DNA of 41,847 bases from IMG/VR virus record IMGVR_UViG_3300031953_000042; one strand, given 5' to 3'. Positions 23,898 to 41,847 of this stretch are shown in pieces. The notes under the pieces are model-generated. The model saw only the letters and a program-made list of their open reading frames with translations, was not told where the DNA came from and searched no databases. The translations under genes were made by a program, and so were the position numbers. Source of the DNA: a virus. Within the stretch, counting starts at the first letter, position 1. Each line of letters starts with the position of its first letter.

Positions 23898-24599
23898 TTA
23901 GCCGGTGATCTTGATCGGCCAGTGTGTGTTCACGTCGGAGGCGTCTTTACCTGACCGGCGAAGATAGTCGGCGAATGACTCCGCTTGTGAGCGGGCCCAC
24001 TCGACTTGTGCGGCGTGCACTCCGTCGGGGTTGACCGAAGCGGCGAGCGCTAGATCGTCGAAGCGGCGAAGCATGGACTGCAGAACGCGGCCGGCGGCTA
24101 TGGAATCGGCGAGAGCTCCGTGGGCTTCACCCTCAAACTTCACCCCGTAGTGCTCGGCGGCGGCTACTAGGGTGCGCTTGCCCTTGCGGAAGCGGTCGAA
24201 TTGCTTGTCGAGTACCAGCGGGTCGAACACGTTCGGGCGGGGCATTAGCTCTTTGAGTTCTTTCCCGAAGTGGCGGCGGGTGCCGGCGTCGAGCATGGAC
24301 AGATCAAACGGGGCGTTATAGATCACGATCGGGAGATTGGCGCCGATCGCCGTCCGCAAGTGACCGACCATTTCGGCGATAGCTTCGCCGGGGACTTGGC
24401 CGAGTGCGGCCATTTCGTCGGTGATGCCGTGCACGGCGGTAGCTTCCGCGGGGATATGGATCTCCGGGTTCACTTTCCATTCGTGCCAATCCAACAACTC
24501 CCCGTCTTCGTCGAGCAGCGAGACCGCGCCGGAAACGATGCGGTCGTTCTCGGTGTCGACTCCGGTTGTTTCTAGGTCGAATGATGCGAGAGCAATCAT
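23898..24599 (-). CDS. DnaQ-like 3'-5' exonuclease (DEDDh family)
   Basis: Exo I FDLETTG, Exo II IYNAPFDLSML and Exo III HGALADSIAAGRV. Confidence 0.85.
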   Translation of the reverse strand: MIALASFDLETTGVDTENDRIVSGAVSLLDEDGELLDWHEWKVNPEIHIPAEATAVHGITDEMAALGQVPGEAIAEMVGHLRTAIGANLPIVIYNAPFDLSMLDAGTRRHFGKELKELMPRPNVFDPLVLDKQFDRFRKGKRTLVAAAEHYGVKFEGEAHGALADSIAAGRVLQSMLRRFDDLALAASVNPDGVHAAQVEWARSQAESFADYLRRSGKDASDVNTHWPIKITG

Positions 24600-24680
24600 G
24601 GGTTTGCTTCCTGTTCTGTTTCGGTTGTGCCTAATTGCACACCCCCGGCTACCCCGTGAGAGATAGCCGAGAGAGAGCCG

Positions 24681-27273: not shown

Positions 27274-27839
27274 TCGCTTGCCTTAGTGCTCGGAACCGCT
27301 TCAATGCGGCTCCCGATCTCGAAATTCCCGTCCTCTGACACGTCGCACCAGAACCGGCCGGGAGTAATCTCGCCAAACCCGCCGTGGCTAAACCGGCGGA
27401 AAGCGTCGAGCAGCACGGCGCACCGCGGGGTCTCCGGTCGAATGTGCGGGGCAACGTAAGCCATCCCGGTTTCTTCAATGATCAAGACGTGGCGGGGAGC
27501 TTCGGTCTCGTACTCGGTAGCGGGCTCGGTCTCTGTTTTCTTCACGGGGTTACTTCCTTTTCTGTTCGATGGTTGCGGGCGGTTGCTTTTGAGCCCTAGC
27601 CGTTTTAGCTCGGTCTGGACTCGGATATTGGTCTGGTTCATTGCCCGTGCGATTTCGGGAACTGTTGCGCCTTTCCCGTGCAACTCCCGCACTTGCGTAG
27701 CGAACGGCGTCGGCTTTTGGAACGTTGCGAAGACTACGGCCGAGCGTGCGAGCTCCCGCGGGTGTTGACCTAAGCCGCCGGCCGCTTCCGCTAGGGCTAA
27801 GTACTCCCGGTTCGTGAGCTCGATCGTTAGCAGTTTCAC
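27270..27839 (-). CDS. DNA-binding protein (RHH-like N-terminus plus HTH)
   Basis: MKLLTIELTNREYLALAEAA is RHH-like. GATVPEIARAMNQTNIRVQTELKRLG is an HTH. GTG start in a GTGA overlap. Confidence 0.6.
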   Translation of the reverse strand: MKLLTIELTNREYLALAEAAGGLGQHPRELARSAVVFATFQKPTPFATQVRELHGKGATVPEIARAMNQTNIRVQTELKRLGLKSNRPQPSNRKGSNPVKKTETEPATEYETEAPRHVLIIEETGMAYVAPHIRPETPRCAVLLDAFRRFSHGGFGEITPGRFWCDVSEDGNFEIGSRIEAVPSTKASE

Positions 27840-28255
27840 CGGATCCCCAATTCGTCGACGGCCATTGTGAGCAAGTGCGAAACGCTAGGGCTCGACGGGT
27901 TCCAAAACCCCAACGCGCCGGGCGTCGGCACAGGCGTAACGAACTCGCGAGCGCCGGAGAGCTCCCAATGCCACGCGGCGCCGGCGATCGCTCCGTCGGC
28001 CGCCGAGCAGTCACACTCGGCCGAGTCTGCCCGGTGGCTTCCGGTGAGATTCGCGAAGCCGACAACGGCGCGGGTTGTGATCTTGCCGGCGCGGAAACGC
28101 TCGACATACTCGGCCGGCGCTAGTTCGTGCACGGCAACGGCCGCATGGATAAACACAAGCCCGCGAACGCCGGTGACTTGGCTCCGGTTCTCGATGGTCT
28201 TCCGCCCCTGAACGATCGCGTCGGCGAACGGTTGGCGAACGGTGAGCACTCTCAT
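27836..28255 (-). CDS. ASCH domain protein
   Basis: MRVLTVRQPFADAIVQGRKTIENR is the typical ASCH N-terminus. ATGA overlap with the upstream gene. Confidence 0.65.
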   Translation of the reverse strand: MRVLTVRQPFADAIVQGRKTIENRSQVTGVRGLVFIHAAVAVHELAPAEYVERFRAGKITTRAVVGFANLTGSHRADSAECDCSAADGAIAGAAWHWELSGAREFVTPVPTPGALGFWNPSSPSVSHLLTMAVDELGIR

Positions 28256-29215: not shown

Positions 29216-29300
29216 GCGGCCGCACCTCCTAACTAGGTGATCTGGCTGGAACGCGTCGGGCTCGTAACCCGGCGCGTTCGTTCGTTCTGAGAGCGTAACA

Positions 29301-33624: not shown

Positions 33625-33692
33625 TAGTGTGCCTCGTTCTTTTCTCTTGAGTTGTTTATCTGGGATTGTGTGCGGCCGCCCGATTGGGTTCG

Positions 33693-33745
33693 AGCGGCCG
33701 CGGTGTTGCTTAGGCTACTTGATCAGCAGCGGCCGCGGTGTTGCT
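33693..33745. repeat. 18-bp direct repeat AGCGGCCGCGGTGTTGCT (33693-33710 and 33728-33745) straddling the exonuclease stop codon
   Basis: Both copies were read directly. A further GCGGCCGC palindrome at 33672-33679 can pair with the one at 33694-33701. Confidence 0.8.
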
Positions 33746-37157: not shown

Positions 37158-37183
37158 CGGGCGGCGAGAGTAGCCGCCGCCCG
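37158..37183 (-). terminator. 9-bp GC hairpin in a 71-bp gap (U-tract-less terminator/attenuator candidate)
   Basis: CGGGCGGCG (37158-37166) pairs with CGCCGCCCG (37175-37183). Confidence 0.35.
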
Positions 37184-38186: not shown

Positions 38187-38386
38187 TATTTCTCCGGTTG
38201 TTTCTGTTCGTGGAACACGGCGGTGATCGCACAAACGACAAGAGCGACGGCGAGCAGACTCGCCCCGTTGAACTTGTCGGATACTCCGAGAGCGATCGCG
38301 CCGGCGGCGGCGGCTTGTGCGAGAAAGATCACCGACCAACGGGGCGGCTTGCGGTCTTTCTTGCCGGATACAATTGTGCGTGTCAA
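38186..38386 (-). CDS. Small membrane protein (2 TM, 66 aa)
   Basis: TTG start with GAGG 7 nt upstream. Hydrophobic stretches WSVIFLAQAAAAGAIALGV and LLAVALVVCAITAVF. Confidence 0.5.
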   Translation of the reverse strand: MTRTIVSGKKDRKPPRWSVIFLAQAAAAGAIALGVSDKFNGASLLAVALVVCAITAVFHEQKQPEK

Positions 38387-38408
38387 AGTCGTGCCTCGAT
38401 TCTTGGCC

Positions 38409-38449
38409 GAGTGGGTGCCGATCTGGGTTCGGTGCCCACTCTTTTTTTT
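38409..38449 (+). terminator. Rho-independent terminator oriented for PLUS-strand transcription, inside the minus-strand operon
   Basis: A 12-bp stem (38409-38420 / 38430-38441) is followed by T8 (38442-38449). Two stem positions are G-U wobbles only in plus-strand RNA; they are A-C mismatches in minus-strand RNA. Confidence 0.65.
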
Positions 38450-38452
38450 GGG

Positions 38453-38683
38453 TTATCTTCCGAAGTTGCGGGTGATTTCTGCGGGGTCTTCGAGCCCGAA
38501 GAGCTCGGCGAGCAGTTCGAGTTCGTGCAGGGTGAACTCCCGCCGGCCGTTCATGCGTGCCGATACTGCCCCCAATCCGCGCTCGATCGTTTCGGCGATC
38601 TGTTGGTTGCTTACGTTGTTTTGAGCGGCGAGAGCGCGCACGTTGCCCGCTACTTTCTCCGCGAAGCTGAGTTGAGTTGCCAT
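38453..38683 (-). CDS. XRE/Cro-like helix-turn-helix regulator
   Basis: ATG 38683 with GAAAGG upstream. NVSNQQIAETIERGLGAVSARMNGRREFTLHEL is an XRE-type HTH. It is the first gene of the leftward operon at a divergent junction. Confidence 0.75.
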   Translation of the reverse strand: MATQLSFAEKVAGNVRALAAQNNVSNQQIAETIERGLGAVSARMNGRREFTLHELELLAELFGLEDPAEITRNFGR

Positions 38684-38823
38684 GTTTCTACCTTTCGTTA
38701 TTAGAGACCGTAACACAAACACGCCGCGCCGCGACCTGTTTAGGTTGTTTTCCGTTCACTTTGTGCCGTATAGTGGACTGCATCGGGTTCCTCCCGGTAC
38801 TACCCAGAACAGATTGGCACAAC
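38684..38823. promoter_or_regulatory. Divergent intergenic control region; candidate plus-strand promoter TTGTTT-18-TATAGT
   Basis: This is the only strand switch of the divergent type. TTGTTT lies at 38745-38750 and TATAGT at 38769-38774. I could not identify a convincing minus-strand promoter. Confidence 0.4.
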
Positions 38824-39288
38824 ATGAACAACGCAACCGCACAGATCGAACAGGGCACCCGCGTAAAGATCACCAGCAACCGCTCCGCTTCGCGTTTCTT
38901 TGTTCTGGGCTACGAGGGCGAATATGTTTACCTCGTTCAGACCAGCGCGAACTCAACTAGCGCCGCCGACATTTCAATGGTCAATCTGGATGTCGCTCTT
39001 GCTTCCGACATTGAAGCCGACCCCAAAGGCAAGGCCCAACTGATCAGCGCTTGGAAGCGTTTCTGGGAGCTCCGCGTTGCCGCGCAAGCCGTGAACACCC
39101 CGGCACCCGCCGAAGTTGAGCCGCTTCCCGCGTCGTCGTTCGCCCGTGTTGTTGCCGCCGCCGGTTGCTCGACTTGCGACGCACCGGCCGGCGAGAACTG
39201 CGCCCGAATCACCGAAGACGGAACCCGCCGTCCGCTCGGTCGGAATCACCGCAGCCGCGTTCTCGAAGCCAACGCCGCAACCCTCTAA
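38824..39288 (+). CDS. Hypothetical protein (N-terminal beta-rich module, C-terminal Cys/His knuckle)
   Basis: ATG 38824. C-terminus CSTCDAPAGENCARITEDGTRRPLGRNHRSR. Confidence 0.65.
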   Translation: MNNATAQIEQGTRVKITSNRSASRFFVLGYEGEYVYLVQTSANSTSAADISMVNLDVALASDIEADPKGKAQLISAWKRFWELRVAAQAVNTPAPAEVEPLPASSFARVVAAAGCSTCDAPAGENCARITEDGTRRPLGRNHRSRVLEANAATL

Positions 39289-39301
39289 CCCAACTTTTAC
39301 C

Positions 39302-39324
39302 GGGGGCGGCATCCCGCCGCCCCC
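39302..39324 (+). promoter_or_regulatory. Intercistronic stem-loop H1 (9-bp stem, loop ATCCC)
   Basis: GGGGGCGGC ATCCC GCCGCCCCC. Confidence 0.7.
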
Positions 39325-39345
39325 CCTGAACCGATCGGAAAGACC

Positions 39346-39633
39346 ATGACGAAAGCCGCCGAGACACAAGCCGCACGGGTCGAACGCCGCCTAATGGCGA
39401 TTTACCCGGCCGCTGATGGCTACGACGTGCAAGTTCACGTCGAGGGGTACTCTCTCGCGGCGAGCGTGTGGCGCGACAACAACCGGACGGTCGGATACGT
39501 CGGGGACAAGTGGACAGTTGCCGCGGCACTCGAAACGCTCACCCCGCTGTTCGACAAGCTAGACCGTGACGAAGACGGGAACCCGCCCCGTGACGAAGAC
39601 GGAAACCCGCTAGACCTGAGCCAGTACGCCTAA
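39346..39633 (+). CDS. Hypothetical protein with C-terminal DEDGNP tandem repeat
   Basis: 95 aa. Contains RDEDGNPPRDEDGNPLD. Confidence 0.65.
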   Translation: MTKAAETQAARVERRLMAIYPAADGYDVQVHVEGYSLAASVWRDNNRTVGYVGDKWTVAAALETLTPLFDKLDRDEDGNPPRDEDGNPLDLSQYA

Positions 39634-39640
39634 CCCCTAC

Positions 39641-39665
39641 GGGCTCGGCATCCCGCCGAGCTCCC
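39641..39665 (+). promoter_or_regulatory. Intercistronic stem-loop H2 (loop ATCCC, stem with one bulge)
   Basis: GGGCTCGGC ATCCC GCCGAGCTCCC. Confidence 0.65.
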
Positions 39666-39686
39666 AACGAATAGAAAGAGAAAACA

Positions 39687-40157
39687 ATGCCTACAGTTCG
39701 CAAGCAATACGGCCCCACCGTGAAGTGCACTTTCACCGGAGACCTAGCGACAACGCACCGCCCCGGTAACTCTGGCCCGTTCTTTTGCATGAATTGCGGG
39801 GAGACCGATCACCCCGAGGTTGACTACGCGGAACACTTCGCGGGGAAAGCCGCCGAAGCGGAAGCCGCGAAGCCGACCGAAGAGACACCGACCGGCGCCG
39901 CCCTGTCACCGTTCTACACAAACATCCCGACGCCGGTCAAAGACGGGGACACGGTTACTCTTACGTTTGACGAACACCACGGCCGCGAGTATGTCGTCGG
40001 CGATATGAGTCGCAACGGCAAGGCGGCTTTCTTGTACGGAATGCCCGACGGGAAGCCGGCGCCGCTCTCAACTCCCGGCGTGCTCCGCTTCGGCCCGTTC
40101 AACGTGAGCGAGTTCCGAGCAACCCGCAAGACGCACGCCGCACGCTCCCCGAAATAA
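39687..40157 (+). CDS. Hypothetical protein (N-terminal Cys knuckle, C-terminal beta-rich module)
   Basis: 156 aa. Contains KCTFTG...FFCMNCGETDH. Confidence 0.65.
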   Translation: MPTVRKQYGPTVKCTFTGDLATTHRPGNSGPFFCMNCGETDHPEVDYAEHFAGKAAEAEAAKPTEETPTGAALSPFYTNIPTPVKDGDTVTLTFDEHHGREYVVGDMSRNGKAAFLYGMPDGKPAPLSTPGVLRFGPFNVSEFRATRKTHAARSPK

Positions 40158-40172
40158 CCCACAACCCCAACC

Positions 40173-40199
40173 GCGGCGCCGGCATCCCGCCGGCGCCGC
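40173..40199 (+). promoter_or_regulatory. Intercistronic stem-loop H3 (11-bp perfect stem, loop ATCCC)
   Basis: GCGGCGCCGGC ATCCC GCCGGCGCCGC. Confidence 0.7.
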
Positions 40200-40219
40200 C
40201 CCAACAGATCGGAAAGACA

Positions 40220-40645
40220 ATGCCCAAACTCCACGAAGCTCTCGCACAGTTCGCAACCGTCGCCCGTGCCATGCCCGGCGCCGACCCCATCATTCGCCCA
40301 ATGGCCGCGCTCGACTGTTCACAAGTCGAAGCGTTCACCGGGGTTCTCCGCGCGATCGGCGAAGTTGAGCTCGCCGACTCCCTCTTGGCCGAGCACGAAG
40401 CGCACGACCGGAAGTACGGCAACCGCGCACACAACGACGAACTGCCAACGACACCCGTCGCCCCGCCGTTGCCGTTCCTGATTGACGAACGAATCGCAAC
40501 GATTCGCCCCGCGGTTCTCTCCACCGGTGCCGAGCTCGGATCCATTCGCCTAGTCGAGTCCACAACCGGCACACTCCACAAGCAAGTGCTGAACGTCTTC
40601 GGAGAATGGGAAGACGCGCTCGAGCTCGCACCCGTAGCCGGCTAG
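40220..40645 (+). CDS. Hypothetical protein
   Basis: 141 aa. It is the last gene of the plus-strand cassette. Confidence 0.65.
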   Translation: MPKLHEALAQFATVARAMPGADPIIRPMAALDCSQVEAFTGVLRAIGEVELADSLLAEHEAHDRKYGNRAHNDELPTTPVAPPLPFLIDERIATIRPAVLSTGAELGSIRLVESTTGTLHKQVLNVFGEWEDALELAPVAG

Positions 40646-40658
40646 CCCGCAACGAACG

Positions 40659-40696
40659 AAAGCCCCGCACCGGGTAGGGTGCGGGGCTTTCTTTGT
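40659..40696. terminator. Bidirectional intrinsic terminator (T1) between convergent genes
   Basis: AAAGCCCCGCAC CGGGTAGG GTGCGGGGCTTT. It is followed by TCTTTG on the plus strand and TTTCGTTCGTT on the minus strand. Confidence 0.75.
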
Positions 40697-40702
40697 GGGC
40701 TC

Positions 40703-41101
40703 TTACTCGGCCGGGTGTCGCGACTTGCGCGGCTCAACGTCGAAGATCACCTGAGAGCGGCGCCGGAGTCGAGCAACCAACGAAGCGTCTAGGCGGGTGA
40801 TCGTGACGGCGACGCCGAAGTACACGGCGAAGCGGAACGCCGGCCGCCATTCGAGCACGTCGGGCGGGGAGACATACCAAGGGGCGCTTCCGCCGACGAA
40901 GATCGCGACGAAGATCAGCGCCACCACTCCGAGCAACGAGAGCGTGAACCAGAACACAAGCTGCCCGGCCGCGGTGTCATACCAGCGGAACCGGAAGCCG
41001 TAGAGAGCAACCCACACGATAAGGGCGCCGGATATGTAGAGAACGGTCATGTTCGCCACAACCCACAAGGCGGGGTTGATGTAGTCGGTTAGTGCGTCCA
41101 A
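40703..41101 (-). CDS. Membrane protein (about 4 TM)
   Basis: TTG 41101 with GGAGGG 8 nt upstream. Hydrophobic stretches: ALWVVANMTVLYISGALIVWVALYG, LVFWFTLSLLGVVALIFVAIFVG and FRFAVYFGVAVTI. Confidence 0.6.
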   Translation of the reverse strand: MDALTDYINPALWVVANMTVLYISGALIVWVALYGFRFRWYDTAAGQLVFWFTLSLLGVVALIFVAIFVGGSAPWYVSPPDVLEWRPAFRFAVYFGVAVTITRLDASLVARLRRRSQVIFDVEPRKSRHPAE

Positions 41102-41701: not shown

Positions 41702-41734
41702 GCGAGCCCCGCACCGGGTAGGGGCGGGGCTCGC
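41702..41734 (-). terminator. Hairpin T2 downstream of the holin-like gene, near-identical to T1
   Basis: GCGAGCCCCGC ACCGGGTAGGG GCGGGGCTCGC. On the minus strand it is followed by TTTAT. It shares AGCCCCGCACCGGGTAGGG and GCGGGGCT with T1. Confidence 0.55.
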
Positions 41735-41847
41735 GGCCGTGCTTAGTTTATTCGCCGGCCGGTTTGATCGGTGCGAGCCATGAAAGCCACGGCGTGTTGC
41801 TAATCAACGCATTGACGGCGGGTTGCGCCATAATCTGCGCGAGCAGT
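41721..41847. repeat. Terminal overlap copy 2. It duplicates the 3' end of the holin-like gene (28-127) and half of a hairpin.
   Basis: Exact duplicate of 1-127. It contains no independent genes. Confidence 0.95.

Follow-up and report, generated by a model that had tools for sequence, protein, structure and literature searches.

Intercistronic hairpins in the plus-strand cassette of a metagenomic phage: candidate members of a clade-wide hairpin and start-motif module

In Cluster K mycobacteriophages, the start-associated sequence (SAS) is a 13-bp start-codon repeat that contains a Shine-Dalgarno (SD) sequence, follows the consensus GGGATAGGAGCCC with at most two mismatches and is present in 11-19 copies per genome (PMC3203893, PMC12699233). 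Just upstream of about half of the SAS copies lies the extended start-associated sequence (ESAS), whose two inverted repeats, imperfect and 17 bp long, follow a sequence consensus and are 4-13 bp apart (PMC3203893). The function of both elements in actinobacteriophages has been an open question since 2011 (PMC12699233). Here we analyzed a stretch of phage DNA of 41,847 nt (IMG/VR record IMGVR_UViG_3300031953_000042; called the window below) in which the only plus-strand genes, g1 to g4, form a cassette whose three spacers each hold one GC hairpin (H1, H2 and H3) ahead of a purine-rich box and the next start codon. Judged by sequence comparison, H1-H3 are best described as a local family of a module type that appears to be common to the whole phage clade. 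We give about even weight to their being cis-acting RNA hairpins that form the upstream halves of intercistronic modules, that is, insulators against decay and structure that define the ribosome-binding site.

Cluster K SAS/ESAS is the closest known system and has the same two-part logic as the clade described here. As with SAS, an asymmetric SD-containing motif (GATCGGAAAGAC in the window, and the clade motif described below) is co-oriented with, and immediately 5' of, the starts of non-structural genes; in a way that recalls ESAS, an inverted repeat with a short spacer stands ahead of about half of the clade motif copies, of which there are several per genome. The sequences, however, are unrelated: GGGATAGGAGCCC has 9 matches in the window (at most three mismatches) against 8.6 expected, none of them at the cassette starts, and this chance level rules out membership in Cluster K SAS. 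Unlike SAS, the window's motif has largely decayed to AGAAAGA-type boxes and, unlike the 17-bp consensus arms of ESAS, the arms here are 9-15 bp long, perfectly paired and freely compensated. In H1-H3 themselves the inverted repeat has a 5-nt spacer and perfect arms of 9-11 bp that share only four apical pairs. The phage lineage and presumably the host also differ. A preliminary description of this locus had noted a resemblance to SAS and ESAS with a different sequence; the architecture is indeed alike, and the multi-copy motif and hairpins of the relatives make the analogy stronger.

Another similar group are the mRNA-stabilising hairpins of the repetitive extragenic palindrome (REP) type, as in E. 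coli (PMC3993855). These are also GC hairpins without U-tracts that lie between cistrons, are repeated in the genome and were proposed to act as barriers to exonucleases. Unlike REP, hairpins of the H1-H3 type are found at a fixed distance from the next ribosome site and also in 5' leaders, and only their apex is conserved; neither a RAYT-type transposase nor a GTAG-type head is present here.

Hairpins H1-H3 and the end of transcription

Each of the spacers between g1 and g4 folds into a single strong hairpin, with a minimum free energy (MFE) of -17.5 to -28.4 kcal/mol and z of -3.8 to -5.7, and none of 200 shuffles was as stable. Folding, covariation and repeat count define the three hairpins as follows:

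39302..39324, plus strand: H1, a 9-bp hairpin GGGGGCGGC-AUCCC-GCCGCCCCC, with the invariant apex at 39307-39319
39641..39663, plus strand: H2, a 9-bp hairpin GGGCUCGGC-AUCCC-GCCGAGCUC with one G-U pair and the invariant apex at 39646-39658
40173..40199, plus strand: H3, an 11-bp hairpin GCGGCGCCGGC-AUCCC-GCCGGCGCCGC, with the invariant apex at 40180-40192

The preliminary description had reported three hairpins with the loop ATCCC and identical closing pairs. This was borne out by the folding, and the invariant core CGGCATCCCGCCG is longer than was noted: it comprises 13 nt, the loop and four closing pairs, and is present in three copies against 0.02 expected, a number that 0 of 100 shuffles reached. 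The apex string of H1-H3 is CGGCAUCCCGCCG, and GGCATCCCGCC has exactly three copies in the window, all on the plus strand and all in H1-H3. The stems had been described as different yet complementary, and they are: 27 of 27 pair cells are paired across H1-H3, against 41-67% when the 3' arm is slid as a control. Pair 5 is G-C, U-A or C-G, pairs 6 and 7 flip once each and pair 8 is G-C, G-U and G-C; in all, three pairs below the apex are altered on both sides and one changes from G-C to G-U. The covariation statistic is weak by itself, being drawn from three sequences of one genome (13-22 of 500 shuffles reach the observed values). Taken together, the feature is real and statistically sound, and the data support the view that the stems are a selected structure and not a product of chance.

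Two details of the earlier description need to be corrected. A bulged T in H2 is not needed, and the 9-bp stem with one G-U pair folds instead; the distance from stop codon to stem, given as 8-15 nt, is 13, 7 and 15 nt for H1, H2 and H3, respectively. The distance from stem to ATG is 21, 23 and 20 nt. Rfam at gathering thresholds gave 0 matches in the whole window, and within 38600-40800 only chance-level matches were seen, none of them at H1-H3. Inspection ruled out complementarity between the loop and either the SD box or the 3' end of 16S rRNA, as well as tRNA-like arms, a CRISPR-like array and antisense-strand terminators.

One of the questions that such hairpins raise is whether they stop transcription. 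A canonical intrinsic terminator has a GC hairpin followed immediately by a U-rich stretch of 7-9 nt, and there is no U-tract after H1, H2 or H3, whose tails are CCUGAACC, CCAACGAA and CCCAACAG. The terminator scan did not call H1-H3, whereas it called the terminator-like 38409-38441. By their sequence, canonical termination at H1-H3 is excluded. The earlier proposal of a role other than that of a canonical terminator thus agrees with the tails, with the scan and with the finding that mycobacterial RNA polymerase (RNAP), NusA and NusG included, does not terminate at hairpins without U-tracts, which were proposed to be RNA stabilisers or to define 3' ends (PMC3993855).

It is rather improbable, in our view, that H1-H3 are non-canonical or factor-dependent attenuators, whose C-rich, G-poor flanks would load Rho and lead to a graded expression (g1 > g2 > g3 > g4). 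The hairpins do stand directly after stop codons in C-rich, G-poor sequence, U-tract terminators are scarce in actinobacterial genomes, and terminators lacking poly-U have been reported for phage phiC31. Yet, termination by purified mycobacterial RNAP with NusA and NusG needs a U-tract (PMC3993855). Canonical terminators are present where operons truly end (40658-40691 and 38409-38441), and the module described below is also found in 5' leaders that have no upstream gene to terminate. In addition, the unpaired C-rich stretches are only ~10-20 nt long, which is short for a Rho-loading site.

Start boxes and the clade-wide module

The second half of each module is the box in front of the start codon. 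The four boxes of the cassette are:

38812..38823, plus strand: degenerate start-associated motif GATTGGCACAAC before the g1 ATG, resembling AATTGAGGCACAA of relatives
39333..39344, plus strand: GATCGGAAAGAC, an SD-like box one base 5' of the g2 ATG, exact match
39673..39684, plus strand: AGAAAGAGAAAA, a purine box before the g3 ATG, read from the sequence as the phage-wide ribosome-site type
40207..40218, plus strand: GATCGGAAAGAC, an SD-like box one base 5' of the g4 ATG, exact match

The preliminary description had placed one motif before every gene of the cassette. This stands for g2 and g4, which carry the exact GATCGGAAAGAC, and not for the other two genes: the g3 start has AATAGAAAGAGAAAACAATG / AGAAAGAGAAAACA, and the g1 start region carries GATTGGCACAACATG in place of GATCGGAAAGAC. 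A degenerate copy had been claimed for the g1 leader, and GATTGGCACAAC at 38812-38823, being similar to AATTGAGGCACAA of the relatives, agrees with this. The motif is not a signal specific to the cassette, since it is the ordinary SD-like box of the phage with a clade-typical flank, and the same boxes precede many minus-strand genes.

The same layout is found elsewhere in this genome. AGAAAGA-type boxes in G-poor, C/A-rich leaders stand before many minus-strand genes that have a real gap ahead of them (for example at the starts 37549, 37130, 34767, 33624, 26912, 25841 and 23861), and GC hairpins without U-tracts, often after a TAACCC stop, lie in several minus-strand gaps (38409-38441, 37158-37183, 33672-33701, 29245-29275 and 24640-24669). 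Hairpins 38409-38441, 37158-37183 and 33672-33701 belong to the minus-strand early operon, and downstream of each come a G-poor spacer and then either a purine box or ATCGAGGCAC. Since similar leaders, boxes and U-less hairpins precede minus-strand genes, the cassette employs the general punctuation of the phage, and the shared apex alone is special to it.

Some further observations touch these sites. TAACCC ends many genes that have a spacer downstream (stops at 39286, 39631, 40155, 38453, 37202, 23898 and others), and may be either a preferred stop-codon context or a part of the module. Hairpins 38409-38441 and 33672-33701, both on the minus strand, share the apex CGA-ACCCA(G)A-UCG on unrelated lower stems, like H1-H3. 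Read on the plus strand, 38409-38450 is a hairpin followed by T8, a textbook intrinsic terminator that opposes the minus-strand early genes and lies between the Cro/CI-like helix-turn-helix (HTH) gene and the next gene; it could be a stop for antisense transcription or the end of an unannotated plus-strand RNA.

For the RuvC gene, which lies at a distance of 640 nt from the cassette, ~25 relatives with 50-67% identity were found, and the comparison was made with 12 distinct related contigs of 68-71% GC (L009, L010/11/12, L013/14, L015, L016, L017, L018, L082, L083, L084, L117 and the fragment L019). The layout is common to all sufficiently long relatives, with a reversed cassette of 1-4 genes between the holin and HTH genes. 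In most of the 12 relatives GAAT(C/T)GAGGCAC is found 3-8 nt 5' of start codons, with up to ~5 copies per 20-kb locus: at the head of the reversed cassettes, in front of recT (in most relatives), and behind both the HTH gene and the gene downstream of RuvC. To our knowledge, this motif has no prior description for any phage group. Apart from L015, L016 and L083, which also carry it, examples are:

L009, 11077 and 14132: GAAT(C/T)GAGGCAC
L018, 4617: GAAT(C/T)GAGGCAC
L082, 13679: GAAT(C/T)GAGGCAC
L084, 13472 and 17601: GAAT(C/T)GAGGCAC
Window, 38391-38402, minus strand: GAATCGAGGCAC, the single canonical copy in the window, beginning at 38402

Because the L084 variant CGATCGGAGACC nearly matches GATCGGAAAGAC of the window, and GATTGGCACAAC resembles AATTGAGGCACAA, the motif of the preliminary description appears to be a decayed local form of a clade-wide start-associated sequence.

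Upstream of the clade motif, a hairpin beyond the 5th percentile of local stability was found at 11 of 25 sites against ~1.25 expected (Mann-Whitney p = 0.002). The statistic is the sliding 44-nt minimum energy compared with random windows; two cruder measures, the MFE in windows of 58 nt and the length of the longest unbroken stem (G-U allowed), were dropped, being uninformative in DNA of 62-71% GC. The module hairpins of the relatives have no U-tracts, a G-poor C/A run lies between hairpin and motif, and stems and loops differ unrelatedly from site to site in the clade. Modules are also found in the 5' leaders of first genes (L018 1468-, L016 5699-, L015 5334-), and because no upstream cistron exists there, the hairpin goes together with the downstream start. 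One hairpin, after the gene downstream of RuvC, can be followed by synteny:

Window, 37158-37183, minus strand: syntenic hairpin
L015, 9426-9455: syntenic hairpin
L016, 7716-7745: syntenic hairpin

Its flanks have diverged, but its 11-bp stem is 100% paired in the three phages, with 3 compensatory pairs, and the loop core CUACUC is invariant. Elements of this class thus show genuine covariation between phages. More distant relatives have a hairpin at the same syntenic place with other sequences.

The search for the apex of H1-H3 itself gave a different picture. A covariance-model search of related DNA had been proposed, and the model R1, built from H1-H3, recovers only its three training copies at 40 bits, the next best match in 602 kb + 432 kb being <=22.4 bits. 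In 1.45 Mb of fetched DNA the hairpin-tip 11-mer lies within no other hairpin. A pattern scan of IMG/VR for GGCATCCCGCC-N(8-30)-GGAAAGAC gave 4 matches, none of which is a hairpin, and these are taken as chance. Protein-seeded scans of IMG/VR with g1, g4, RuvC and holin gave no relatives. Profile scans with RuvC in JGI metagenomes, IMG/VR and GTDB genomes gave mostly relatives at <=43% identity and no close prophage; the GTDB genomes are Actinomycetota such as Leifsonia, Frigoribacterium, Curtobacterium, Clavibacter, Gordonia and Streptomyces. The preliminary description had let its case depend on conservation in homologous cassettes, and this conservation fails, as the homologous cassettes of the 12 distinct relatives have no such hairpins. 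In their reversed cassettes stop and start codons overlap, and the single gap, of 38 nt in L082, is without a hairpin. The g4 homologs in L009 and L016 have no upstream hairpin module, and nothing corresponding to g1-g3 was found in the reversed cassettes of the relatives compared.

This last result suggests that g1-g3 arrived with their own spacers, as would be expected if the spacers were gene-shuffling junctions at the DNA level. In such a case the apex and the GATCGGAAAGAC box would be short homologies for exchanging gene-plus-spacer units, with the hairpin incidental or secondary, in a manner likened to PeSL cassettes in T4-type phages and to boundary sequences in lambdoid ones. RecT and a YqaJ exonuclease, both encoded by this phage, are of a type able to recombine DNA where only short homologies exist. 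The PeSLs, regulatory cassettes with a repeated stem-loop, mediate shuffling of this kind and, like the units here, are found in a variable region, between small ORFan genes (Arbiol et al. 2010, PMC2839356). They combine a strong sigma-70 promoter with an effective terminator stem-loop (PMC2839356), whereas here neither a promoter nor a U-tract is present. A consensus scan across 38300-40800, spacers included, gave 0 promoter-like sites, and as only 20-23 nt separate stem and ATG, a PeSL cassette was ruled out. Furthermore, a homology of 12-13 nt is very short, recombination within the apex would mismatch the arms, yet they pair perfectly, and a second phage with the apex was not found in the IMG/VR pattern scan or in the related DNA. 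The GC content at third codon positions (GC3) of g2-g4 is 0.73-0.75, within the range of the minus-strand genes. We therefore hold shuffling to be very improbable and, together with attenuation, a minor rival. An integron attC site, which is an imperfect palindrome of 57-141 bp with R''/R' (RYYYAAC ... GTTRRRY) and IntI, was also ruled out: H1-H3 are 23-27 nt long, CCCAAC stands on both hairpin flanks in direct and not inverted orientation, and no integrase family was seen in the scans.

Insulation of cistrons and specific binding at the apex

A mechanism that fits these modules is insulation at the RNA level. Their order is a stable U-less GC hairpin, a G-poor, C/A-rich spacer that would be single-stranded, a purine-rich SD-containing box and the start codon. 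RNA polymerase would pass H1-H3 without stopping. In the polycistronic mRNA, each hairpin would then bar 3'-to-5' exonucleases that come from downstream and 5'-end-dependent decay that comes from upstream, and it would hold the local G-rich sequence in a closed helix whose 3' end lies 20-23 nt 5' of the ATG. The G-poor spacer and the SD box would thereby stay unpaired, a process that may allow independent initiation at each cistron. The hairpin is tied to the downstream initiation site by the constant distance from stem to ATG (that from stop codon to stem varies between 7 and 15 nt), by its presence in leaders and by the G-free spacer; 20-23 nt before the ATG is also about the expected 5' edge of a bound 30S subunit.

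Several points weigh against insulation. The homologous cassettes of the relatives work without intergenic hairpins, so that a cassette of this kind can do without H1-H3. If the role were purely structural, the 13 identical apical nucleotides would stay unaccounted for, when the lower stems differ at 4-7 of 10 positions. The GGAAAG box is only 3 nt from the ATG of g2 and g4, which is short for a Shine-Dalgarno sequence. Finally, the early region of actinophage phiC31 reportedly has terminators without poly-U tails (so the title of a 1995 paper by Ingham and co-workers, cited in PMC3993855), which makes attenuation possible.

Another question is why the apex is the same in all three hairpins. 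Either the 13 nt reflect common descent, from each other or from a common pool, together with selection, or one factor binds all three. If the latter is true, CGGC-AUCCC-GCCG would be an operator, on any stem sequence, for a sequence-specific RNA-binding factor of the phage (such as the zinc-finger protein g1) or of the host, and g2-g4 would be co-regulated through translational repression or activation, processing or antitermination, as at the MS2/PP7 coat-protein operators or lambda boxB. An invariant apex over a compensated, variable lower stem is the pattern expected if a protein reads the loop and closing pairs and requires no more than a helix beneath them. The genome has a second pair of hairpins with a common apex on unrelated lower stems (CGA-ACCCA(G)A-UCG), the loop core of the syntenic hairpin is kept in three phages, and the end of the hairpin, 20-23 nt from the ATG, is near enough to influence 30S binding. 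Still, we consider a specific binder unlikely: g1-g4 have no RNA-binding family match and the structure models of g1 and g3 are unusable, none of the relatives has the apex, nor does it occur in ~1 Mb of related DNA, and the other module hairpins of the clade bear unrelated loops. Because the hairpins of the relatives have unrelated loops and stems, the generic function of the module needs no particular loop, and this leaves the sequence-specifically read loop of the preliminary description unsupported.

In lambda and P22, boxB has a 5-bp stem and a purine-rich, GNRA-like 5-nt loop that is read by a protein; boxA stands alongside, the site is found once per operon and the phage encodes N. H1-H3 are similar to this nut boxB in their short GC stem, 5-nt loop and C-rich flanks. 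A lambda-type nut site was nevertheless ruled out, because the loop of H1-H3 is pyrimidine-rich and the stem has 9-11 bp, no boxA-like element was seen by eye, and no N-/Q-like antiterminator family was found for 30 proteins searched against Pfam or in the recorded Pfam matches of the other genes.

A wider version of the binder, which we judge quite unlikely, is that the different hairpin apices (AUCCC, CUACUC and ACCCA(G)A) are addresses for distinct RNA-binding factors of phage or host, in a dedicated post-transcriptional control system. If true, sets of genes would be co-regulated on the mRNA level irrespective of operon structure, and the plus-strand cassette would be a regulon with three identical addresses.

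Two proteins of this phage are recorded here beside these subjects. A protein at 27836-28255 (minus strand) has a marginal match to ASCH, a PUA-like, putative RNA-binding domain (E = 6e-4, just under the curated cut-off), and the early operon encodes a clear RNase_T/DEDD exonuclease at 23898-24599 (minus strand).

Setting of the cassette and its meaning

The window corresponds to a metagenomic phage contig that was assembled as a complete circle (ENA ERZ27315296, k141_18244). Its positions 1-127 are identical to 41721-41847, and because this is the assembly overlap of a circular contig, the window represents the whole phage genome, with the lysis genes split across the ends. It has 62% GC and no tRNA genes. 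Against 50,697 reference phages, megablast with the cassette and with 25 kb of the window gave no near hit, and the portal protein is <=37% identical to known portals of Streptomyces, Gordonia and Microbacterium phages; on these grounds the phage appears to be an unclassified actinobacteriophage. No integrase was found among the proteins scanned, which suggests a lytic or non-integrating phage. The minus strand carries almost all genes, including those for tail, lysis and holin, the Cro/CI-like HTH protein, RuvC, an AAA/SMC-like ATPase, YqaJ, RecT and methyltransferases. The cassette g1-g4 is divergent from the HTH gene and convergent with the holin operon:

38453..38683, minus strand: Cro/CI-like HTH gene, divergent, with a promoter region common with the cassette (phrog_4583 transcriptional repressor, E = 1e-9)
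38745..38774, plus strand: putative cassette promoter, TTGTTT, 18-nt spacer and TATAGT, with the -10 at 38769-38774; read from the letters and below the threshold of the consensus scan
38784..38796, plus strand: small hairpin of the leader, CGGG-UUCCU-CCCG, close to where the transcript is predicted to begin; weak, with -7.3 kcal/mol over the 44-nt leader, and no better than shuffles
38824..39288, plus strand: g1, 154 aa, whose C-terminus weakly matches the zinc finger Phage_zn_bind_8 (E = 1.4e-4, short of the curated cut-off)
39346..39633, plus strand: g2, 95 aa, an open reading frame without a family match
39687..40157, plus strand: g3, 156 aa, an open reading frame without a family match
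40220..40645, plus strand: g4, 141 aa, the only one of the four with homologs in the relatives' reversed cassettes (L009 7399-7806, 41% identity; L016 5188-5607, 34%)
40658..40691, no strand: canonical 14-bp terminator hairpin with A and U runs on its flanks, ending the cassette and the convergent holin operon (-43.9 kcal/mol over 63 nt, z = -6.9)

The -10 region of the cassette aligns with a CGTAGTGT box at the equivalent place in relatives, and GCCGTAGTGTGT precedes their reversed cassettes. A -10-like box, GCCGTA(TA)GTGT, is conserved in all relatives between the HTH gene and the reversed cassette, at 38764-38776 in the window and upstream of the reversed cassettes of L009, L010, L013, L015 and L083, and is probably the cassette promoter. 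At the other end, where cassette and holin operon converge, the terminator 40658-40691 is bidirectional. The hairpins at 40658-40691 and ~41702-41733 have a near-identical core of 27-28 nt, AGCCCCGCACCGGGTAGGG(T)GCGGGGCT, in direct orientation, and flank a three-gene block with the holin gene.

The family searches (Pfam, PHROGs, NCBIfam and PADLOC for g1-g4, and a PDB sequence search for g1 and g3) gave the sub-threshold zinc finger in g1 as their sole match and no RNA-binding family. AlphaFold models of g1 and g3 had a predicted local distance difference test (pLDDT) score of 40 and 34.5 and were unusable. A word-seeded search of 5.8 billion proteins with g1 and g4 gave copies from the phage's own contig and one partial g1 homolog, P0003, on a 566-bp fragment that spans the g1 N-terminus and has no spacer; an exact look-up of g4 gave only identical copies of the own contig. 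The acidic C-terminus of g2 contains a short in-frame direct repeat (39563-39610, plus strand), which encodes RDEDGNP twice.

That a second, unrelated clade joins a hairpin to about half the copies of a conserved SD-containing motif suggests that the arrangement answers a general problem in a general way, the problem being how to initiate each cistron of a long polycistronic mRNA independently and in insulation in high-GC hosts where U-tract terminators are little used. This clade offers cleaner material than Cluster K, as its perfect covarying stems let structure and sequence be separated, and the three identical apices allow a specific binder to be tested directly. Synthetic operons in Actinobacteria could also make use of the modules as compact insulators between cistrons.

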